Positions 4,385-38,130 of a stretch of 64,000 nt of DNA are shown piece after piece. Positions within the stretch are counted from its first letter, which is position 1. Each line of letters opens with the position of its first letter. A program made the translations under genes and the position numbers. Under the pieces are notes generated by a model. It ran no database searches and was not told where the DNA came from. It saw nothing but the letters and a program-made list of their open reading frames with translations. This stretch comes from a phage, in assembly GCA_038314665.1 (NCBI GenBank), contig GCA_038314665.1_3677.1; one strand, written 5' to 3'.

Positions 4385-6724
4385 ATGGCTACAAACAAAA
4401 TAGTTGCCACAACAGTCAACAAGATTGGCTTTGAGATAGAGAACTCCTCCTACAAAAAAGCTGTAGAGAAAATTCGCAGTATTGGGAGGGAGTTCAGGAA
4501 ACTAGGTGAGGATTTTAACTCAGCCAACCCCATGGGGAGATGGCAGGCGGTAGCTGTTAAAACCCAGCAGACAATGCAGAGGGTTGCCAGACAGCAATCT
4601 CAGGCAAATGCTAAACTGCACAGGGAGAGCGTAACACAGGCTAAGAAAGAGGCTGCAGTAAGGGCTGCAATAGAACGTAGGGAGAATGCGAGACGTAAAC
4701 AAGCTGTAGGTAATCTTACCGCTAAAAATCCAGAAATGGCTAGGATGCGTAAGTTCTACCAGCAGCAAGCTAAAGAGGCCAAAAAGGCTGCCAAATCTGC
4801 ACCAGTGTCTTACGGTGGTTATAAGGCACCTAAGGCAAGAGTTTTGGCTAATGCCAAATCTTTCAAATATATCCCCGGTAACCCTAATATGGGTGGTGTG
4901 GCTTCCGACCCTAACCTTGTGAAAGCTCAGACAGCCGCTATGAATCGTTATCATAGACAGCTAAGAAGAGACAGTAAAGCTGGTATGGATAATAAGCTTA
5001 TGTCGGATCGTGAGGCAAGGAGAACCCACCTCTACAACTCCGCGATAAGACTTTCTGCCAAGTATGGGGCCGGATTCCGTGGAAGCTTGCCAGGATACTC
5101 AGAGTTAGAGTCCAGGTTTGCTCGTGGGGAGATGAAAAAGTCAACATTTAATGCCCACTTGTCAGCGCTGCAGTCTGGATTTAAAAGCGCCACCAGTCAA
5201 ACGCTTACACTAGGCGATGCCATGAGAGACCTACGTAGATCTGTTATTAATGCAACAGCTGCGTATACGGCTTTTTCTGGATTTACTGCTGTTAACAGAT
5301 CCGGTCACATGATGGAGGGTGCAAGTGCTGCTCTTACTGCTGTTACTGGAGATCCAAACAAAGCCAACAGTGAGGTTGCGTTTGTCCAGCAAGAGGCTAT
5401 GCGTCTTGGTTTTGATCTCAAATCTGGTCTTCAAGGTTACGCCCAGATGGCGGTAAACGCCAAAAACCAGATGACAAATCAGGAGGTTCATGAGCTGTTC
5501 TCTGCATACTCCCAGTATGCTGCTGCTTATGGTGCTGATGAGGTAAAATATCAGCGCGGTATCATGGCAATACAACAAATGCTAGGCAAGGGACAAGTAA
5601 TGTCCGAAGAACTGAAGCAACAACTTGCTGAAGCGTTGCCTGGTGCATACGAACCTTTTATCAAGGCCACCAAAGAGGCTTTTGGTCTTTCTGAACTATC
5701 CATGGATCAGTTCATGGACATGATGAAGAAAGGTGAGGTTAAAACAGCCAAGATCATGAAGTATGTGGCTAAGTACATGAACGAGGCATCTGCAGCTGGT
5801 TATGAAAGAATGCAGAAGTCTAACGTACTGGCAGAAAACAGACTGAAAACCTTCATCGAACTGTCTCGTCAGAAACTGTTCACCCGTTGGGCAGATGAAT
5901 TGACAGAGTTCTACTACACCCTGATCCGCACAGGTGAGACTCTGCAATTTGTGTGGGATGCCTCAGGTGATTTTGTTAGCGGATTTATTAGAGGCCTTAA
6001 CTGGGTTGTTGGTGAGCTAAACAACACTATAGTTAAGATCCGCCTGTTTTTCCTTGAGTGGGGCATCAAATGGGGGTTCATAACAGCTAAGACGAAGGAG
6101 TATTCCGAAGAGCTGCATGACACCTTCAGCACTGCCAAATGGGCAGGGTATGCTGCTGCCATTATGCTGGTAGTGCACGCTCTTACAAAAGGGTTTGTCA
6201 TGGCATCCATGCTTGTAAAAACTTTTAAGTTCCTTAGCACCCTGAAAGGTGCAGCTGGAGCTGCTGGCGCTGGTGCCATCACCACAGGGGGTTCTGTAGG
6301 TGGCGCAGCAGGAAAAGGTGGTGGAATAAAAGCACCAGGCATCAAAGGTACCGGTATGTTAGGCAAGTTGGGGATACTTGGGACATTATTGAGTGCTGGG
6401 GCTATGGTTAATGATCGTTTCAACCCTTTCAGTGAGAGAAATCAACAGCTGGATACTATTAGTGACATGATCCGCAAAGATATAGTATCGGGTGGCAACG
6501 GGTTTGTTAATCCTCTAGACACTTTACCTGGTGGAACCCTTCCGCTACCCGGTGGTCCTGGTTTTGCCTCTCAACTGAGAACCATGGAAATGTTACCTTT
6601 GGAGATCAGCGATGGTAAAATCACCATTTCGATAGATGAAGGTGAGTTTAGCAAAATACTTGATGCAAAACTTGAGTGGGAGAATAACAAAGATATTAAC
6701 TTTATGTCAACAGATCTTTGGTAA
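4385..6724 (+). CDS. tail tape measure protein
   Basis: 779-aa ORF after the chaperone pair; long predicted helical N-terminal part, Gly/Ala-rich hydrophobic segment (GAAGAAGAGAITTGGSVGGAAGKGGG), GGAAACC RBS. Confidence 0.7.
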   Translation: MATNKIVATTVNKIGFEIENSSYKKAVEKIRSIGREFRKLGEDFNSANPMGRWQAVAVKTQQTMQRVARQQSQANAKLHRESVTQAKKEAAVRAAIERRENARRKQAVGNLTAKNPEMARMRKFYQQQAKEAKKAAKSAPVSYGGYKAPKARVLANAKSFKYIPGNPNMGGVASDPNLVKAQTAAMNRYHRQLRRDSKAGMDNKLMSDREARRTHLYNSAIRLSAKYGAGFRGSLPGYSELESRFARGEMKKSTFNAHLSALQSGFKSATSQTLTLGDAMRDLRRSVINATAAYTAFSGFTAVNRSGHMMEGASAALTAVTGDPNKANSEVAFVQQEAMRLGFDLKSGLQGYAQMAVNAKNQMTNQEVHELFSAYSQYAAAYGADEVKYQRGIMAIQQMLGKGQVMSEELKQQLAEALPGAYEPFIKATKEAFGLSELSMDQFMDMMKKGEVKTAKIMKYVAKYMNEASAAGYERMQKSNVLAENRLKTFIELSRQKLFTRWADELTEFYYTLIRTGETLQFVWDASGDFVSGFIRGLNWVVGELNNTIVKIRLFFLEWGIKWGFITAKTKEYSEELHDTFSTAKWAGYAAAIMLVVHALTKGFVMASMLVKTFKFLSTLKGAAGAAGAGAITTGGSVGGAAGKGGGIKAPGIKGTGMLGKLGILGTLLSAGAMVNDRFNPFSERNQQLDTISDMIRKDIVSGGNGFVNPLDTLPGGTLPLPGGPGFASQLRTMEMLPLEISDGKITISIDEGEFSKILDAKLEWENNKDINFMSTDLW

Positions 6725-17640: not shown

Positions 17641-17670
17641 GCCCTCGCTTCGGCGGGGGCTTTTTGTTTG
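17641..17670 (+). terminator. rho-independent terminator
   Basis: GCCCTCGC-TTCG-GCGGGGGC hairpin followed by TTTTTGTTTG. Confidence 0.8.
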
Positions 17671-18876: not shown

Positions 18877-19301
18877 TGAGCACACATCCTCGTTTAGTAG
18901 ATTGGCAAGAAAGATTGTGGAAAGTGTTTGACGAAGAGGCCACCATACCTTTTGAATGGGGATTCCACGATTGTTGCACCTTTGCAGCCAAGTGCGTTGA
19001 TGCCCAGTACGGAACAGATTTTCTTTCTAACTTCGAAGGAACGTATAAAACAGAGTTGGAAAGCAAAAGATGGTGCATGCTCCGTTTCAAAACCACACAC
19101 CTGCCTACTATTTTTGATCTCTTTATGACTCGGCTGGATACTCATAAACAGGTTCAGCGTGGAGATATTGTCATTTTCGAAGGTCTGAACGGGCTCACCG
19201 CTGGTGTGTTCTGGAACAACCAGATTTGGGCGAAAGGTGATAAAGGGGTCTTTATGTTCGACATGAAAGATTCTATCGTTGTTGATGTCTGGAGGTATTA
19301 A
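18876..19301 (+). CDS. NlpC/P60-like putative tail-associated peptidase (gpK-like)
   Basis: Motifs WGFHDCCTF (Cys-containing) and RGDIVIFEG resemble NlpC/P60 peptidase cores; ATG 18876 chosen over the TTG at 18864. Confidence 0.4.
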   Translation: MSTHPRLVDWQERLWKVFDEEATIPFEWGFHDCCTFAAKCVDAQYGTDFLSNFEGTYKTELESKRWCMLRFKTTHLPTIFDLFMTRLDTHKQVQRGDIVIFEGLNGLTAGVFWNNQIWAKGDKGVFMFDMKDSIVVDVWRY

Positions 19302-22300
19302 TGCCAATTGCAATGATTGATAACATCGTTGCTTCTGCAAGATCTTCAAGTTATGACTGGAACGCATCCAAGGCAGCTCTGGCTGACAGCCTGAACACTG
19401 TTACCACCAGAACTCTGGATAAGATTTTTGAGGGCAACAAATCTTACAGAAGTCAGCAAGATAGACAAAAGCTTCTCAGATCTTCTGCTGCACCCTGCTC
19501 TGTAGTGTATGGGAAGACACGCACGTCTGGGCTGCTTGCGTTTTTGGAGCAGGACAGAGACAGAACCCTCCATTGTGCCATTGTTCTTGCTAATCATCCT
19601 CTGGAAGGTATAGAAGACATACTCATCGACGGTAATCCTATTTCCTCGTATGGAGATCTGGTATCGTGGGAGCTACATAACGACAGAAAAACATCTGATC
19701 CTTTCATGGGTACACACTGCCCATCGTGGTCACCAGATATGATAGGCAGAGGTATCAGTTGGCTGCGTGCCAGCTTCAAGTTTGACCCCAGTAAGTTTCC
19801 TTTTGGGTTGCCAAACGTTACACTGGTCAAGGTTGGTAAAAAATGCTATGACCCCCGCATCAGTAAAGAGGTGTATACCAATAACGCGGCCTTGGTGATC
19901 CTGGACTATTTAAGAACGTACCTTAAATGTCCTGACGAAACCATCAACTGGGAGTCCTTTAGGGAGGCTGCCAATATATGCGACGAGGCGGTAAAAAACG
20001 CTGACGGAACCAGTGAGCGACGTTACACCATTAACGGTGAGTTTGACATGGATGAGGCCCCAGCAAGTATTATGGCAGAAATGCTGAAAGCTTGCGGTGC
20101 AGACCTTAGTTATGTTGCTGGTAAGTATGGTTTGCTGGTTGGTGCATACTATGGCCCAGCAACAATGACACTGAGTGAGGATTGTGTCTGTGGTGAGGTC
20201 AAGATCTATCCGGAAGCCTCCTTTGACAAGAGATCCAACACAATAACTGGCAGATTCACTAGTCCGACCAAAGGGTATTCTGAAACAGATTTTCCATCAG
20301 TGTTTGTCCCAGAGTGGATAGAGAAGGATGGAGAAAGAAAGATAATTGATATAGACTATCGCTTTGTTACCAGTCCTTATCAAGCTCAGCGTGTTTCTGC
20401 AATCTTCTTAAGACGTGCTAGAGCTGGCAGGATTATTGAAGTCACCTGCAATATGCGAGGTTTTAAATTTAAACCTGGCCGTTACGTTACAATGGACCTT
20501 CCAAGTATTGGTATAGTAGGCCAAGAAATGAGGGTTCTTGAATGGGAGTTCACCAAAAAGGGCGGTGTCAAGGTAAAACTTCGTCAAGATGCTAAAGAGT
20601 GGAATGATGCCACAGGGCAACTTCCGGATTCTGGTGATGTAGATATTCCGATATCTCCATCTGGTGTAGCTCAACCGCAAAACTTCAGATATTCCGTTCT
20701 CCAAGCCGGGGAAGTAACTCACGGTGTTTTGGCTTGGGACAACGTTGGAACTTACGCTCAAAATATTGTGCAGGTAAGAAAGAACGGAGAGATTGTTTGG
20801 ACAGCACAGACAGTTGAGCAGTTTGTCCGAGTAGAAGGCTTGACCAAAGGATCATACACAGCAACCGTGGTTGCAACATCTTATAAAGGTGGTGTATCTC
20901 CAGAAGCGTACTGCGAGTTCAACATTCAGGCACCTGAAGCTCCTGTTTCTGTGGAAGTTAAGCAGGGATACTTTGCTATTACCCTGATCCCGCACAGCAG
21001 AGACTTGGCTAGTGTAAGCACCCAGTACGACTTTTGGACATCTGGGATGACAAGATTGCCAGATACCAGTGATGTAACAGTTACTTCAAAAGCCACTCGT
21101 ATGGGTGTTGGTTCAACTTGGACATCTGAAGGTCTGCAGAACGATAAGATTTATTACTGGTATATCAGGACAACAAATGCTTTTGGTTCATCTGCTTTTG
21201 TGGAGTGTGCAGCCCACTGTTACACATCCATAGAAGATCTTATGCCACAGATTGATGCTGAGTTCAAAAAGACAGAGACTTATAAAGAGCTTACCGCCAA
21301 TCTTGATAATGCAGTCAAGGAAATGGATAAAAATGTTGGTGCAGTCAATGACCGTGTTACTAGCATTTTTGAAGAGCTTGGGGATACAATAGAGGGTGTT
21401 GTCAGAGAGACGACAGAAAAATTTACAGGGGTTAATGGAGAAATTTCTGCCCTTAACAGTAAGCTGGTAGCAGCTCAGCAATCCTTTGACGATAAACTTG
21501 CAGCAGAGTCTGGTAGGCTTGGGTCACTAATCGAGACAACAAATAGATCAACCGTTGATCTTGTTAATCGTAAAACTCAAGCATTGAGTGAGCAAATAAC
21601 TGCAACTCAAGGTACTCTGCGGGAAGAGTTGAAGAACACTGAGAGCAAACTTAACTCCTCTATTCAAGAAACCAACAAGGCAACAACCGATCTGCTAAGT
21701 AAGACAACGGAAGCTATTAAGCAGGATCTGGTGGCAGCTACAGGGAAGATCACCAAGCTGGAAGATGATGTGCAGAAAGAGGTTGCCAATCTGCAAGCAT
21801 CTATTCAAGAAACTAATAGTACAACAGTTGATCTTGTTAATAATACAGCCACAGCGATCCGTCAAGAACTTACCTCTGCAAAACAAGAAATTGTTGACGA
21901 AATGGGTAATATTGATGAGCTCAGGGCTACAGTATCTAATACCTCTAAAGCTGTAACAACACTTGAGGGTAAAATAGATGCTCAGTGGGGAGCTAAGATT
22001 CAGGTTGACAGCCATGGTAATAAATATGTGGCAGGTATCCAGCTGGGCATGGAGGGGTCTGGAGGACAAGTTCAATCATACTTCATGGTTAGTGCAAACA
22101 ACTTTGCGGTATATAACCCCGGAAATGGAACAGCAACCCTTGCTTTCGCAATCAAGAACAACCAAGCGTTCTTGAAAGACGCTTTTATAGAGAATGGCAC
22201 GATCTCCTCTGCCAAGATCGCACAAGAAATTTCGTCAAACAACTACGATGGCAACGGGTACCATAAATACGGTTGGTATATTAACAAGAACGGGCATGCC

Positions 22301-22900
22301 CAATTTATGGATGTGTGGGTGAAAGGCAACATCAACGCCAGTTCTGGTAACTTCACAGGGGCAGTTAATGCCACTAGTGGTACCTTCCGTGGAGATGTTT
22401 ATGCCAATAATGGTAGCTTTAGAGGCACCATAGATGCAACCGGAGGTACATTCCGTGGTCGTGTAGAAGCTTCTGTTATCCGTGCTAACCAGTTCGAAGG
22501 TGCAATTGTTGCACACAGGACTTACGGAGATTGTGCTCCAGTGCATAACTCCCAGCAGAGGGTTTGCCGTTGGAGGTGGAGATACGTAGATAACGTTTCA
22601 GGTCAAGGTAAGAACGTAACATTCTTCTTTAAACTGAACGGTACTCGTGCCAACTCCCAACTAAATGCGTGGATAGCTGGTCATCAACTCCTTGCTGGCA
22701 AGAAGTACGGGAACGACAACGATGGCATGTGTGCAATTGGGATAACAGGTCTAGGTGAACAAACTATAGACATTATTATTGAAATCTACACCCCGTGGTC
22801 AACGTCAAACGTGACAGGTGTCACAATCTCCTGTCCCACTGTGATCGTTAGTCGTTCTAACTCAAGCTTCCAGGGACCTTGGAACGAGTCTCACGACTAA
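19301..22900 (+). CDS. large tail tip/host-specificity protein (gpJ-like) with coiled-coil repeats and C-terminal fibre repeats
   Basis: 1199 aa; central region resembles J-type tail tip proteins; internal repeats (IQETN..TVDLVN), GTFRG-type C-terminal repeats. Confidence 0.5.
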   Translation: MPIAMIDNIVASARSSSYDWNASKAALADSLNTVTTRTLDKIFEGNKSYRSQQDRQKLLRSSAAPCSVVYGKTRTSGLLAFLEQDRDRTLHCAIVLANHPLEGIEDILIDGNPISSYGDLVSWELHNDRKTSDPFMGTHCPSWSPDMIGRGISWLRASFKFDPSKFPFGLPNVTLVKVGKKCYDPRISKEVYTNNAALVILDYLRTYLKCPDETINWESFREAANICDEAVKNADGTSERRYTINGEFDMDEAPASIMAEMLKACGADLSYVAGKYGLLVGAYYGPATMTLSEDCVCGEVKIYPEASFDKRSNTITGRFTSPTKGYSETDFPSVFVPEWIEKDGERKIIDIDYRFVTSPYQAQRVSAIFLRRARAGRIIEVTCNMRGFKFKPGRYVTMDLPSIGIVGQEMRVLEWEFTKKGGVKVKLRQDAKEWNDATGQLPDSGDVDIPISPSGVAQPQNFRYSVLQAGEVTHGVLAWDNVGTYAQNIVQVRKNGEIVWTAQTVEQFVRVEGLTKGSYTATVVATSYKGGVSPEAYCEFNIQAPEAPVSVEVKQGYFAITLIPHSRDLASVSTQYDFWTSGMTRLPDTSDVTVTSKATRMGVGSTWTSEGLQNDKIYYWYIRTTNAFGSSAFVECAAHCYTSIEDLMPQIDAEFKKTETYKELTANLDNAVKEMDKNVGAVNDRVTSIFEELGDTIEGVVRETTEKFTGVNGEISALNSKLVAAQQSFDDKLAAESGRLGSLIETTNRSTVDLVNRKTQALSEQITATQGTLREELKNTESKLNSSIQETNKATTDLLSKTTEAIKQDLVAATGKITKLEDDVQKEVANLQASIQETNSTTVDLVNNTATAIRQELTSAKQEIVDEMGNIDELRATVSNTSKAVTTLEGKIDAQWGAKIQVDSHGNKYVAGIQLGMEGSGGQVQSYFMVSANNFAVYNPGNGTATLAFAIKNNQAFLKDAFIENGTISSAKIAQEISSNNYDGNGYHKYGWYINKNGHAQFMDVWVKGNINASSGNFTGAVNATSGTFRGDVYANNGSFRGTIDATGGTFRGRVEASVIRANQFEGAIVAHRTYGDCAPVHNSQQRVCRWRWRYVDNVSGQGKNVTFFFKLNGTRANSQLNAWIAGHQLLAGKKYGNDNDGMCAIGITGLGEQTIDIIIEIYTPWSTSNVTGVTISCPTVIVSRSNSSFQGPWNESHD

Positions 22901-22908
22901 CCTTTAAA

Positions 22909-22935
22909 GCCCCGCTTCGGCGGGGTTTATTTTTA
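22909..22935 (+). terminator. rho-independent terminator
   Basis: GCCCCGC-TTCG-GCGGGG hairpin followed by TTTATTTTTAT. Confidence 0.8.
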
Positions 22936-29249: not shown

Positions 29250-29285
29250 GGTCAGGACGGAAAGGACTCCGTTCTTGCATTTTGT
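29250..29285 (+). terminator. weak hairpin terminator candidate
   Basis: GGACGGA/TCCGTTC stem with one wobble followed by TTGCATTTTGTT. Confidence 0.3.
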
Positions 29286-32410: not shown

Positions 32411-32418
32411 TATATCTA

Positions 32419-32446
32419 ACCGCTCCTGACGGGGCGGTTTTCTTAT
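32419..32446 (+). terminator. rho-independent terminator
   Basis: ACCGCTCC-TGAC-GGGGCGGT hairpin followed by TTTCTTATC. Confidence 0.65.
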
Positions 32447-32458
32447 CTGGAGAACACA

Positions 32459-35400
32459 ATGCTTCCAATCCCTTTGCTAAAACTTGGTCGTCATTTCCTC
32501 GATAAGAGGGGTGGAATTAAGGAACTTGCTGTTCTGTCATACCCAATAGACAACAGTGATGGTACAAGCAATACAGTATCCTATGTAAATAGCTTAGCTA
32601 TACTTTTTGATGATGGTCAGCTTAATATTACTGGCTATAATAGGTTCGGAGAGTGTCGGACTGGAGATCTTGATACAATAAACTATCCTAATGAGGCAGC
32701 TTGGAACGTAGACCATGTTTGGAGAGCTGACCGTGCATTTGTAATCCGCACATTCGATAATAAATTTTTCTATATTGGTTGCACAGCTGGTCTTATCGGA
32801 TCTGAGGCAGCAGGTGGAAACGATGTTTGTGTCAGGGAGTGGACACCTTTGCCGGAACAGATCGTAACAGGGTTGCATTTGGACACCCATCCTGAGAGAC
32901 TTGTTGAAGTAATGGGTGGCGTAAACAATACAGTGTGGGTAATTGCCGCACCGGAGGCTGATGGTATGCTTCACCTGTACGGCTCTGGCAATAATACTTA
33001 CGGCTCTCTTCATGTTGACAAAAATCAACACGCTACTCCAGTTAAGATTGGTGAAACATCTGAAAGTCCAGAGACAGGTCCTTGGAAAAATCCAAGAATT
33101 AATTGTGAAGTTCATGACAACTCGGTTATTTTTGGTGGTCCTAACGGATTCTGGATTGCAGGTTACGATTTCTTAAGAAATAACAGCAAAAACGCACTAG
33201 TTTATCCAGCCGAGCATGTGACTCTTGACCAGTTTAAAGGCATCCCGGTAGGCGAGACATGGAAAGGGTTCATGTGTGGACCTAATGGTGCAATTATAGC
33301 CACAGAAAGGATGCACAAACCTGATGACCAACAGCTTGTTAATGTGTTTTATGGTCAGGATGTTTGGGGTGACGACACGTGGAGAAGCCTTAACATCACC
33401 TATACCCATGAAGTAATTATGTCTCGCGGGTACGGGACTAGTGGAATTTTCTTCAATAATGGTACAAAACAGTACCGTGGTTTCTCCAGAAACCTGTGTA
33501 ACGATATTGGTGCTCAATCTGCTAATAATAATCCTAGGGCCAATTTTATTCATTACAGAGCGCTGGCAACAGCTAAGTTTGTTGAACAGACAGAGCCAGT
33601 AAGCTGGACAGAAAGCGTTTATTTTCAAGGGATCCACAGGGAAGGTTTCTTAGGCACATTTTGTGTGGTAAATGGAAAGCTTTGGTGGTCAGGAATACCA
33701 CGTGGTAGTTTTTCAGGATCTAATAACCTCTTTGGCGGCAGACTTAACAGCCAAGGGTTCACAGAGATTCCGGAGAATTGGTATAAAAATGTCCCGGTAG
33801 ATAGCTGGGGTATCGAAGACATCTTTGATGTCAATGGTGTAAGCAATGCTAGCAACATTTACATTGGAGATACTGTCAAGATGAAATTGAAACCTCAGCC
33901 GGAGGGTGCTACGTTCATTATTGACAAGATTGAGTTGGTAAATGCTGCAGGCACTGTTGTTACAGATGCAAACTATCAGTTTTCCACTAACTGGAACCAT
34001 GGTGGTGCTAACGAAGTTGTGGTTACCCAGTATAACCGTAACATCAACAGACGTGGTTTGTATTCTATCAAGATCACCTACCATGACAAGCATGGCACTG
34101 GAAGAACCTATACGACAAGGACTTTGAACTGGAACACTATAGTTCCTGCGTATCCGTCCGACGGCAAGTGGCATACCGTTGGTAGAAACAAGCAGTTCCA
34201 TATTAACGATACTGTATACTTTGGGCTGAATGGGACCCAGCCTGCAGTAGAAGGGGATACATCGTATATGGTCAGACTCCACAGAATGGATGCTGGATCG
34301 GTCACTTATGATGTGACCCAAGAGATCTACGATCAAAGACGCGCCACGTATGACAATATTGTGAAAACACAAGCCTTGTGGGAGTTCAATCCTAATGGCA
34401 AGGGTGGTAAAATGTTGCAGGTTAATGAGCAGAACGGAACGTCGTTGACTGTTCACGAACACCCAGATCCTTGGCCTGACCCTGGAAAACCTCACCCTGG
34501 AGCTCGTACGCTGAAAGTTGTCAGCCATGATGCAGGATATTTCGGAATACGCTGGGAAGCCACAGTAAGATATGCCGACGGGACAACAAACAACATAGGG
34601 ATCACCCTTGGTGGCACTAGTGAAGATAACTCACTGAAAATTGCCTATACCCCTAGAGGCATCTCTATTGATAATATGGATGTTGTTCGCAACGGTTACG
34701 GCGATGTAAATGTCAAAGTTACTCTTGGTGAACATCTCGGTGGGGAAAGGATCATCATGTATGCCTTTGATCATGATCCTCGCACCAACGGAACCTATGC
34801 AAATCAGGCGTGGAGTTACCTGATAAATGCACCTGAGCCGAATACTAAAGAGTTTTATTACGGTATGAAGCGGGATGTGTGCAAGAAAACAGGGACACAT
34901 GATTGGATTGCTATCTGCGTTAAAGATGAACGAACCGCTTGGGACGAGCCTGTTAACCGATGGTTCATAGGGATTCCCACCAGAAGTGATAAGTATGTCG
35001 CAGAATATATTGTGTGCATGGGCGGCACCAACCTGAACTTGTGTTGGAACGAGGATGCAAATAAATACTCTGATTATGACTATATGAGGGATATCTCTTG
35101 CAATCAGTGGTTTAGCCAATCAACAGGTTACCCTCCAAGACAGGCGAGAGTAAACCCTGCAATCTTCACAGACACGCAGGTTTTCTTGACAAAACAGGCC
35201 AACGAGGTTCAGACCTTCAAGAATAAATACGATCCTAACAAGTGGTTCTACAACTGTTACGGCGCATTTTTCTGGGGACCTGGTGAGTTACCTGGTGGAG
35301 GATCTTGCTTGAATGAGGCAACTTACGCCAGTGACTACATCATGGGGCAGGTCAAGAAGTATAAGATAATCCCCGGTCCTGAGACTTTGGGCAATGCCGT

Positions 35401-38086
35401 TGACCCTTATATCATCATGACTGCACTGAGATCAAACATGGATGGGACATCCATGTCCATGCAAATTCCGGTAACAAACGGATACAAACGTGTTGTGATG
35501 ATCATTAAGTGCGACCTGATAGGTAAACAAGTTCTTGCAGAAAACGGGACATCCACACATCCTTTTGAGATCGCTCTACACTATCAGTTTGCTGACTCAC
35601 CTTTTGCAGGGGATAAGAGAATATCTGATACAGACGCACAGCGTTGTAAGAAAGTATTGTTGGGTGCAGGTTGGTGGTGGTATGAGTTTGATTTAACAGA
35701 TAAATTCACCGACACGTCTAAAGTTGTAACAGGACTTCGTCTAGACCTTGGCGAGAACATGCACAAAGCTGTTTGTGATGGCACCTATGGTGACCCTACA
35801 ATATACCTAAAATATGTTTCTTTTGAGCATCCGGAAGATGTTGTCTACGGTCCAAAACTGAGATTGTTTGGCAGCTGGATTGCAAAAGATAGGGTAGGTA
35901 TGGGTAAGAAGGTAAGAGGGTTCTTGGTTGATGCAGGAACAGAAGACATGCTGGTTAATGCAGTATGGCCTGAATTACCTGGGACTCAGTGGGACAACTC
36001 AGCCAAATCTGTAAACTGGTTTAACATTCATAGGGCCATGTGGACCACTAACTGCTACTTGTGGAGAGAGCTTAACGATCAGGCCTTTGGCTTCAGCGAT
36101 GGTAGAAGGATGGCGATCATTTGCTGGACAACACTGCAAAGATGTTATGACCATAACTATGAGATTGGAGGCAGGGAATGGAAAAATATCAGGGACAGAA
36201 TCATAACCAATTTTGCAGACGACAACGGTGGCGGAGCACATAACTTTGGCACAAGCCGACTCATCCATTTGAACGGATCCTCAGCCTACAAGAAAGAAGG
36301 ATACTCTGGGTCCATGATTGAGTGGGGTCTGGTAAAAGATGCTCGTGTGTTGATGGGTCAGCAACTTGCTGCTGCAATAGGGCCGAACGCAGTACAATCT
36401 GTTAAACCAGCGTGGTTCGATATCCCATTATGGTCATCTGGAACACCAGGAACTGCTGCAATCAACCCTACCACTGGGGATTTGGAAATCTCCTGGGAAG
36501 ACTTGAAGCAGGTCGGTGGTTGGGACAAAACAGGGTATCAGGTTCAGTGGTGGAGAGCTGACGGATCTTTAGCCGCTGATGAGTTTGTTAAGGACAATTT
36601 CTACACCATGTCCTCTGCAAAAGCACAGGAATTGTTCGGTCAGGCAACTCCGTCAACGATCACCATGTCTATGTGCTGTAAAGACAACAGGACTGGAGCT
36701 TTGGGGCCAAGGGTTGCTAAGGTTTTCTCAGGTATTAAATGGAATCCCTCTGTTCAAAGTGTTTCATGGAAGCAAATAGGTGATAACAAGCTGCTAGTTA
36801 CCCCCGCCTGTCAGTTCAACGCAACTCTTAACGTTGATCCTGCTGCTGCGGCAAACTCAGCTAAAGCTTCTGACTTCTCTGTGTCTAACACTGCTATGGC
36901 AGATGTGAGGAAGATTGACACGCTGAACGCCAGAATTACCTGTAAAAACACTTATGGCACATTCCAGATCATCAACAACTTCACAGATGCTGATTCTAAG
37001 GTAGTGAGGACAGCAAGCCAGACTCTGAGTTTAGGAACTCTGGCCTATGCAGCCCTGATCACTGAACAGTCGGCAACACTCCAAGGAGGTGGTGTAGGCA
37101 AGTCTATTACAACACCTGTGTGGAAGCCAAATGAGTGGGTTGTGTTTGATTTGACTGTGGACTTCTCTAGTGATAATAACTGGACATGGGTAAGGGATTG
37201 CTTGTCACAACTGATGGGTGGTCCAAGCTCCGTTAGTGATAGCCACGACTCCACTGACCCGAGTGTGTTTCAGGTGGGTAAAACTCACCCGGAGACTGGA
37301 GCAACTTTGCCTGACAGGAAGTATGCTTTGGTTTGCATCTCTAACGGCAAGGCAGATGTCACATTCTCAGGAACACACACTTATAACGGTACATATAACT
37401 TCTCAAGGAAGTATAGTCTTAAGGCAGGGAACATTATAGATGAGGTTGGTCCGTTATATAACCCTGGTAACGGTATAGGTATTGTTGGCGGTTGGTTGCA
37501 AATGCAAGAGCCATCCATAACACCTTCTAATGTTCCTGGCATTATCAAAAAGTGGAAGAGTAATAACGAAACTGTTGCAACAGTCGATCCTAAGACTGGC
37601 AAGGTGACTTTTAAAGCACCCGGTAACGTAGAGATTACCTTCATGGTTATTGACGATGCAGGAACAAAAAGGTCAACAACGTCATTTACTGTTAAACAGA
37701 TGACCCCTCAGTGGTTTATTTGGGAAGGAAATCCTCTTGACGGGGCCTACCCTAGACCTTCAGGAACGTCTAATATGAGGGTATTTACTGGTCCGGTCAT
37801 GGACAATCCGACCACAACCACCAACCCTGCATTTTTTGGTGCTTACATACCTGAAATTATTGGCCTACCAAGGAACCAGATACAACTGCTTTTAGGAACA
37901 GGTGTTGATGGTCTGGCTACTTTTGGGTACAGTGACAACATTGATGCAGCCAGAAGCTCTGGTTGGATTGGATTTAAGTTCCAGTGGAACCCTGGTGGTA
38001 GAACATTAGGCCTCGCAAGTATAGGTGTTATGCTGCCTGGCAACCAGCAATACCATCTCGAAGCTTATACAAACTTCCCTAGTTAA
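32459..38086 (+). CDS. giant virion/fibre-like protein with Ig-like (Big_2-type) domain near C-terminus
   Basis: 1875-aa uninterrupted ORF with GGAGAA RBS; Ig-like segment NETVATVDPKTGKVTFKAPGNVEITFMVIDDAGTKRSTTSFTVK; last gene of the plus-strand structural block. Confidence 0.5.
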   Translation: MLPIPLLKLGRHFLDKRGGIKELAVLSYPIDNSDGTSNTVSYVNSLAILFDDGQLNITGYNRFGECRTGDLDTINYPNEAAWNVDHVWRADRAFVIRTFDNKFFYIGCTAGLIGSEAAGGNDVCVREWTPLPEQIVTGLHLDTHPERLVEVMGGVNNTVWVIAAPEADGMLHLYGSGNNTYGSLHVDKNQHATPVKIGETSESPETGPWKNPRINCEVHDNSVIFGGPNGFWIAGYDFLRNNSKNALVYPAEHVTLDQFKGIPVGETWKGFMCGPNGAIIATERMHKPDDQQLVNVFYGQDVWGDDTWRSLNITYTHEVIMSRGYGTSGIFFNNGTKQYRGFSRNLCNDIGAQSANNNPRANFIHYRALATAKFVEQTEPVSWTESVYFQGIHREGFLGTFCVVNGKLWWSGIPRGSFSGSNNLFGGRLNSQGFTEIPENWYKNVPVDSWGIEDIFDVNGVSNASNIYIGDTVKMKLKPQPEGATFIIDKIELVNAAGTVVTDANYQFSTNWNHGGANEVVVTQYNRNINRRGLYSIKITYHDKHGTGRTYTTRTLNWNTIVPAYPSDGKWHTVGRNKQFHINDTVYFGLNGTQPAVEGDTSYMVRLHRMDAGSVTYDVTQEIYDQRRATYDNIVKTQALWEFNPNGKGGKMLQVNEQNGTSLTVHEHPDPWPDPGKPHPGARTLKVVSHDAGYFGIRWEATVRYADGTTNNIGITLGGTSEDNSLKIAYTPRGISIDNMDVVRNGYGDVNVKVTLGEHLGGERIIMYAFDHDPRTNGTYANQAWSYLINAPEPNTKEFYYGMKRDVCKKTGTHDWIAICVKDERTAWDEPVNRWFIGIPTRSDKYVAEYIVCMGGTNLNLCWNEDANKYSDYDYMRDISCNQWFSQSTGYPPRQARVNPAIFTDTQVFLTKQANEVQTFKNKYDPNKWFYNCYGAFFWGPGELPGGGSCLNEATYASDYIMGQVKKYKIIPGPETLGNAVDPYIIMTALRSNMDGTSMSMQIPVTNGYKRVVMIIKCDLIGKQVLAENGTSTHPFEIALHYQFADSPFAGDKRISDTDAQRCKKVLLGAGWWWYEFDLTDKFTDTSKVVTGLRLDLGENMHKAVCDGTYGDPTIYLKYVSFEHPEDVVYGPKLRLFGSWIAKDRVGMGKKVRGFLVDAGTEDMLVNAVWPELPGTQWDNSAKSVNWFNIHRAMWTTNCYLWRELNDQAFGFSDGRRMAIICWTTLQRCYDHNYEIGGREWKNIRDRIITNFADDNGGGAHNFGTSRLIHLNGSSAYKKEGYSGSMIEWGLVKDARVLMGQQLAAAIGPNAVQSVKPAWFDIPLWSSGTPGTAAINPTTGDLEISWEDLKQVGGWDKTGYQVQWWRADGSLAADEFVKDNFYTMSSAKAQELFGQATPSTITMSMCCKDNRTGALGPRVAKVFSGIKWNPSVQSVSWKQIGDNKLLVTPACQFNATLNVDPAAAANSAKASDFSVSNTAMADVRKIDTLNARITCKNTYGTFQIINNFTDADSKVVRTASQTLSLGTLAYAALITEQSATLQGGGVGKSITTPVWKPNEWVVFDLTVDFSSDNNWTWVRDCLSQLMGGPSSVSDSHDSTDPSVFQVGKTHPETGATLPDRKYALVCISNGKADVTFSGTHTYNGTYNFSRKYSLKAGNIIDEVGPLYNPGNGIGIVGGWLQMQEPSITPSNVPGIIKKWKSNNETVATVDPKTGKVTFKAPGNVEITFMVIDDAGTKRSTTSFTVKQMTPQWFIWEGNPLDGAYPRPSGTSNMRVFTGPVMDNPTTTTNPAFFGAYIPEIIGLPRNQIQLLLGTGVDGLATFGYSDNIDAARSSGWIGFKFQWNPGGRTLGLASIGVMLPGNQQYHLEAYTNFPS

Positions 38087-38094
38087 CAGGAGGC

Positions 38095-38130
38095 AAATAA
38101 AAAAGGGGCCGTTTGGCCCCTTTCTTTTTA
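38095..38130. terminator. bidirectional rho-independent terminator between convergent genes
   Basis: AGGGGCC-GTTT-GGCCCCT hairpin flanked by an A-run upstream and T-run downstream. Confidence 0.8.

Follow-up and report, generated by a model that had tools for sequence, protein, structure and literature searches.

The 64,000-nucleotide stretch of phage DNA analysed here (GenBank assembly GCA_038314665.1, contig GCA_038314665.1_3677.1; hereafter the window) was assigned by megablast to Vequintavirus, as an rV5-like E. coli myophage, and carries on its + strand a 5.6-kb gene encoding a giant protein of 1875 amino acids (aa). The interpretation that we favour, with evenly balanced confidence, is that this protein is an accessory, non-essential, probably low-copy, non-classical adhesin or receptor-binding fibre of the tail-fibre apparatus, 'non-classical' referring to a predicted 'beads-on-a-string' arrangement without a coiled-coil or β-helix shaft. 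The gene is the last of the tail-fibre cluster in Vequintavirus, and its positional homologs share the N-terminal module and differ distally. It evolves with a ratio of non-synonymous to synonymous substitution rates (dN/dS) of 0.08 over its full length, yet its ortholog in phage Bas54 tolerates insertions on E. coli K-12. The gene, its parts and its flanking signals are as follows, in window coordinates.

32418-32439, + strand: terminator-like GC hairpin with a T-run, in the 48-nucleotide (nt) spacer directly 5' of the giant gene (hairpin scan and sequence)
32450-32453, + strand: Shine-Dalgarno sequence GGAG, 6 nt 5' of the ATG (sequence; a ribosome-binding site is annotated at the same site in phage Mangalyan)
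32459-38086, + strand: coding sequence (CDS) of 1875 aa, ortholog of rV5 gp27 and Bas54 bas54_0041 (phrog_15684; sequence comparison)
32459-33808, + strand: aa 1-450, M-x-P-I-P peptide and putative RCC1-like β-propeller module (PHROG profiles, cross-genus alignment)
33809-34138, + strand: aa 451-560, FN3/immunoglobulin (Ig)-type β-sandwich, modelled reasonably by AlphaFold2 (AF2)
34139-34660, + strand: aa 561-734, mostly β region, predicted local distance difference test (pLDDT) score below 50 in AF2, no family match
34661-34981, + strand: aa 735-841, β-sandwich, AF2 pLDDT 75-83 in one of two overlapping models (seg1) and 55-74 in the other (seg2)
34982-36451, + strand: aa 842-1331, orphan core (AF2, identity profile, searches without relatives)
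36452-36745, + strand: aa 1332-1429, FN3-like β-sandwich, AF2 pLDDT 52-71, lowest dN of all regions
36746-37042, + strand: aa 1430-1528, segment hypervariable between lineages, with insertions and deletions (identity profile; AF2 pLDDT below 50)
37043-37735, + strand: aa 1529-1759, tandem Ig-like β-sandwiches, Pfam Big_2 in the last (Pfam; AF2 pLDDT 80-90)
37736-38083, + strand: aa 1760-1875, dimorphic C-terminal tip (C-tip) formed by the final 116 aa (record comparison)
38102-38123, both strands: bidirectional intrinsic terminator closing the operon, a strong hairpin flanked by an A-run and, on its opposite side, by a T-run (at this position rho-independent terminators are annotated for both strands in the rV5 record)

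The open reading frame (ORF) starts with an ATG, runs without interruption and predicts a product of about 208 kDa with a pI of 6.1. A preliminary description of the window, made from the letters alone, had presented it as an uninterrupted ORF of this size and the largest present, and both its coordinates and its rank hold, the runner-up having 1268 aa. Megablast matched the gene, which makes up 4% of the genome, in 122 phage records, with phiWec193 at the top (96.2% nucleotide identity). Because 108 of the 122 records match over at least 80% of its length and the dN/dS of 0.08 (at dS 0.50, among 11 close orthologs) applies from end to end, it is a real gene rather than a chance ORF. Among the same orthologs the ratio lies between 0.03 and 0.18 in every sub-region, so that the whole 5.6 kb is kept by strong purifying selection. 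The gene is also the final + strand gene of the tail-fibre operon and is followed by - strand genes; the terminator, the strand switch and the reversal of GC skew at about 38 kb together agree with the earlier proposal that it ends the structural block.

The gene family is already catalogued: it occurs, annotated, in more than 100 sequenced phages, and the BASEL and HIDEN-SEQ papers discuss it. What is added here is the cross-genus RCC1-like N-terminal module, the finding of how far the orphan core reaches and the division of the C-tip into two alleles. A profile search aligned aa 1-1874 with positions 1-1877 of the 1878 in phrog_15684 ('unknown function'; E = 0, 4368 bits), and word-indexed homolog searches returned 15 full-length clusters. 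Identity at the aa level is 92.8% to rV5 gp27 (YP_002003529), a 'conserved hypothetical protein' of 1878 aa with Big_2, and 95.5% to bas54_0041 of Bas54 (MaxBurger), annotated as 'lateral tail fiber protein with intimin domain'. These are full-length orthologs in the same position and with the same flanking terminators, and there is essentially no difference from rV5 gp27 except that the window protein has the minority type-A C-tip (38 of 114 records) and rV5 the type B (about 62% identity). The preliminary description expected such a protein to be often among the most variable of the virion, which the comparison with Bas54 does not support: the gp37-type fibre is only 83.6% identical and the other eight tail-module proteins are 96.6-99.6% identical, so that the giant protein, at 95.5%, is moderately variable and not the most variable. 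This agrees with the 'moderate' allelic variation reported for the last large fibre gene in the BASEL study (PMC8594841). The truly variable fibre gene is the gp37-type one at 19301-22900, whose 'central fibre J-like' product has 1199 aa as compared with 1279 aa in Bas54, and within which the blastn match to Bas54 is interrupted between 21289 and 21845. More distant relatives are found on IMG/VR contigs of 117-140 kb (L006-L009; P0003-P0015), an uncultured sister lineage of the rV5-like phages with a syntenic tail-fibre cluster, in which the neighbouring genes are 45-74% identical and the giant protein, of 1930-1940 aa, about 54%. No member of this lineage occurs among 50,697 deposited phage records.

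The N-terminal 450 residues are the best-conserved part of the protein: in lineages with an overall identity of 50-60%, theirs is still about 75%. Their PHROG matches are phrog_11922, labelled 'tail protein' (E 3e-28), and phrog_4219, labelled 'regulator of chromosome condensation' (E 2.5e-8). M1, P3, I4 and P5 are invariant across Vequintavirus, Phapecoctavirus and Seunavirus, and G-x-N-x-x-G-type motifs occur at aa 59, 175, 341 and 416. In tblastn comparisons aa 1-207 are common with nieznany gp214 of Phapecoctavirus (39%) and 4MG_038 of Seunavirus (30%), as are aa 392-483. An N-terminal query by itself was unproductive in the word-indexed search; the three-genus alignment recovered Seunavirus-type relatives. 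No Pfam RCC1 (PF00415) match at E ≤ 1 was obtained with the window protein itself. Its relatives nieznany gp214, P0021 and P0027 score above the gathering threshold of Pfam RCC1 and matched PF25390 with E 1e-9 to 6e-11 over aa 40-330, below the model cut-off of 150 bits, and weak PF25390 matches were found in 12 of the 16 family members. By transitive homology, aa 1-450 are thus predicted to be an RCC1-like propeller. Both nieznany gp214 (891 aa, phrog_11922) and 4MG_038 (567 aa, an Ig-domain protein) are encoded by the last gene of a tail-fibre cluster with a hairpin before it, and both have the M-x-P-I-P N-terminus, the predicted RCC1-like propeller and then Big_2 domains; unlike the giant protein, they lack the insertion of about 1,140 aa that contains the FN3 domains and the orphan core, and they have other C-termini. 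Three RCC1-like proteins (phrog_4219), each of about 40 kDa, are clear components of the virion of the related phage W70 (PMC11370258).

At the other end of the protein, the Big_2-like Ig segment anticipated near the C-terminus was confirmed by a Pfam match to PF02368 at aa 1698-1732 (E 7e-7; 29.5 bits, where the gathering score is 22.8). Structural modelling in AF2, carried out on two overlapping halves with a multiple sequence alignment of 16 sequences, gave confident domains that are Ig/FN3 sandwiches, resembling those of adhesins, S-layer proteins, the Ig-like C-terminal domain of lambda gpV and the N4 tail sheath protein. The C-tip exists in two forms among 114 phage records, 38 of them being 90-99% identical to the window and 76 about 62%, with none between. 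Its dN of 0.156 is the highest of all regions, and in some phages the megablast match ends at nt 5256 of the gene. In the 50-60% lineages, aa 1451-1600 and the C-tip diverge while the N-terminus stays at about 75%.

A conserved N-terminus followed by a variable C-terminus would also fit a classical lateral tail fibre, homotrimeric and constituting one of the three sets of fibres in the Vequintavirinae, that would be the primary receptor-binding protein when the host is not K-12; we regard this explanation as rather unlikely. The location in the fibre operon is shared with classical trimeric fibres and tailspikes, the BASEL label names a lateral tail fibre, and the gene is among three large fibre genes with allelic variation; moreover, HIDEN-SEQ found different fibre-gene sets to be conditionally essential on clinical isolates (10.1101/2025.11.20.689424). 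However, the protein shows no signature of a coiled-coil, collagen or β-helix shaft, and its domains are monomer-type Ig/FN3 beads plus a predicted propeller, which stands at the N-terminus. The longest run free of Pro and Gly is 38 aa, giving no hint of a coiled-coil shaft, and self-BLAST detected no internal sequence repeats. Neither a shaft nor Peptidase_S74 nor an adjacent Tfa or other chaperone gene was found using Pfam, PHROG and NCBIfam, the next gene lying on the opposite strand, and tblastn of the protein against the window revealed no paralog or shared adaptor. Cryo-electron microscopy (cryo-EM) gave no assignment either. The correspondence between genes and fibres is described as unclear in the literature, and no homolog is assigned in the phiTE and phi92 cryo-EM papers. 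Despite the word 'intimin' in its annotation, the protein differs from intimin/invasin adhesins in lacking an outer-membrane β-barrel anchor.

In the long central region of the protein, no PHROG family other than its own matched aa 451-1592, and a phmmer search with aa 760-1440 against 1.84 billion representative proteins returned orthologs only, plus one marginal FN3-like match. The orphan core within it matched no other PHROG, Pfam or PDB entry; counted broadly, at about 1,100 aa, it makes up a sizeable uncharacterised protein space. In the AF2 models, low-confidence helical halves at aa 842-965 and 1125-1331 (about 12 helices, 4 + 8) surround a β-domain at aa 966-1124, which is better modelled than the flanking helices and, from its mosaic identity profile, falls into two allele groups among distant homologs. 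Downstream, aa 1430-1528 are 12-18% identical to the 50-60% homologs and bear insertions of 22-30 aa. A set of motifs in aa 842-1331 is invariant in homologs that are 40-90% identical (YIxCxGGTN, DYxRD, KQANEVQ, GxEDMLVN, NWFNxHRAMW, CWxxLxRCY, EIGG and EGYxxSMIEWG). Cys, Trp, His and acidic residues abound in these motifs, which have the look of an active or binding site but match no family. Many polar and aromatic residues of the core are invariant, E1162/D1163 and H1191/R1192 among them.

These features invite the explanation that aa 842-1331 are a cryptic enzyme acting on a conserved surface glycan, for example an (α/α)6-type glycosidase or lyase with an inserted β-domain, and that the Ig domains only present it. 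The predicted helices split 4 + 8 around the β-domain are in line with this, as are the invariant clusters of acidic, His, Arg and aromatic residues (e.g. GTEDMLVN, NWFNxHRAMW, EIGG and EGYxGSMIEWG) and the glycosidase and deacetylase domains borne by neighbouring fibre proteins of the phage group. The check for a pectate-lyase-like fold proposed in the preliminary description was run, and it brought to light neither such a fold nor any other sign of an enzyme: in Pfam, the 16 family members gave Ig-type and weak RCC1-type matches only, and none to a domain of the pectate lyase, glycosidase, peptidase or chaperone kind; NCBIfam gave noise only; phmmer and profile searches against PDB sequences gave nothing, or E of about 0.2-0.3 in the Ig region only; and the three together contained no depolymerase signature, pectate-lyase-like or of another catalytic domain. 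We consider the cryptic enzyme improbable. Slightly less so, although still quite unlikely, is a broader proposal in which the protein is not a classical fibre at all and is instead the founder, itself hugely expanded, of a separate class of host-interaction proteins, with an RCC1-like propeller anchoring a monomeric Ig/FN3 arm that here holds a lineage-specific cryptic enzymatic core (aa 842-1331, (α/α)-barrel-like, with an inserted, exchangeable β-domain). If true, the virion would deliver a new glycan-processing fold.

The low copy number that forms part of the favoured reading bears on the expression of the operon. Four terminator-like hairpins stand between + strand genes 5' of the giant gene (at 17641, 22907, 29254 and 32418), and these, together with the weak detection of the rV5 ortholog by mass spectrometry (MS) described below, make a low copy number plausible. 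The hairpin at 32418-32439 has counterparts with a different stem sequence at the matching position 5' of the gene in the 54%-identity lineage, in Phapecoctavirus and in Seunavirus, so its structure, and not its sequence, is kept across four lineages. It was considered as a gene-specific attenuator and rejected in that role; since similar hairpins follow other fibre genes, it is a property of the module and not of the giant gene. Indeed, strong + strand GC hairpins with T-runs lie directly 3' of fibre genes at 17641-17660, 22907-22928, 29254-29275, 32418-32439 and 38102-38123, and they may serve to grade the expression of successive genes in the operon or to stabilise the 3' ends of its transcripts.

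Several observations weigh against an adhesin or fibre. In the rV5 virion, analysed by multidimensional protein identification technology (MudPIT), gp27 was represented by 3 non-tryptic or semi-tryptic peptides with 9 spectra and 3.1% coverage (PMC3606486), which is the level of the non-structural rIIA, and the authors gave it no 'MS evidence' mark (PMC3606486). Cryo-EM of Bas54 and Bas49 showed density for 3 of the 9 annotated fibres, and the giant protein was not localised (PMC12143355). The mean pLDDT of the two AF2 halves was 46 and 54, the model of the propeller at aa 1-450 is of low confidence, and about 45% of the protein lacks a confident model besides. Intergenic hairpins are common in the operon and therefore no specific mark of the giant gene, and an enzymatic role is conceivable for the conserved helical core, which would make adhesion secondary. 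That the protein is non-essential agrees with transposon mapping by HIDEN-SEQ, in which bas54_0041 is listed with the fibre genes that tolerate disruptive insertions on E. coli K-12 (10.1101/2025.11.20.689424). The preliminary suggestion of a decorating adhesin or giant fibre therefore stands in part: the bead architecture, the conserved N-terminus with a variable C-tip and the lateral tail fiber annotation speak for it, whereas presence in the virion rests on three poor peptides, with no placement by cryo-EM and a gene that is dispensable on K-12. Of the two outcomes named in that description as refuting, absence from virions and a non-structural enzyme, neither was obtained, and each keeps a small probability.

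The same MS result, marginal and equal to that of rIIA, and a gene not needed for infective virions would be expected if the protein was not a virion component but a late-expressed one, intracellular or released at lysis, for example one that has the host surface or cell debris as its target. Disruption of the gene in some isolates points the same way: a 10-bp deletion at aa 1273 is present in EPFV3 (EPFV3-03/2025), and the gene is annotated as split CDSs in the records nomine, ime and naswa, either through loss during laboratory propagation or through assembly error. Against this, the protein has no transmembrane segment and no signal peptide, its gene is co-transcribed with fibre genes, its N-terminal module is common to annotated tail proteins and RCC1-like proteins are found in W70 virions, while purifying selection across 5.6 kb favours a structural, interaction-rich role. 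A non-virion protein accordingly has, in our view, only a small chance of being correct.

Similarly small is the chance that the Ig-like beads mark a decoration protein (Hoc or gpV-Ig type) seated on the capsid, the neck or the tail tube, which would mediate adherence to mucus or environmental glycans and not receptor recognition. Unlike other virion proteins with accessory Ig-like (Big_2) domains, the giant protein has them as a minor part of its 1875 aa and is not a tail-tube or capsid protein. In four lineages its gene lies in the tail-fibre cluster and not, as expected for a Hoc-like decoration, in the head module; a tip with two forms is more usual in a determinant of specificity; and a 208-kDa protein at capsid stoichiometry would have stood out in MS, which was not the case in rV5.

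If the protein is indeed an accessory adhesin or receptor-binding fibre, the N-terminal peptide and the RCC1-like propeller would dock onto the conserved fibre and baseplate network, perhaps with the product of the syntenic upstream fibre gene as partner, and the FN3/Ig-like modules together with the orphan core would make an extended arm. The Big_2 domains and the dimorphic C-tip, the latter setting specificity, may then provide weak glycan-type contacts with particular host surfaces, contacts that would improve adsorption in nature and be needless on E. coli K-12. These steps are all inferred; shown directly are the reality of the gene, its place in the operon, its domains, its pattern of conservation and variation and the dispensability of its ortholog on K-12. 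Since the gene is strictly conserved under purifying selection, yet dispensable on K-12, it is a good candidate for a condition-specific factor of host range or environmental adhesion. The rV5-like phages are used in biocontrol and therapy owing to their broad host range, which is ascribed to a multi-fibre 'Swiss army knife', and the dimorphic C-tip is an obvious target for engineering.

Two sets of database entries carry the gene under unexpected host names. Gene copies 90-95% identical to that of the window are present in 15-16 MG0656xx records labelled 'Campylobacter phage' (host C. jejuni), which are probably mislabelled or contaminant coliphages. A 'hypothetical protein, partial [Eggerthella lenta]' at NCBI (P0018), from a 955-bp contig, is 95% identical to part of the N-terminus and probably reflects phage contamination of the assembly.

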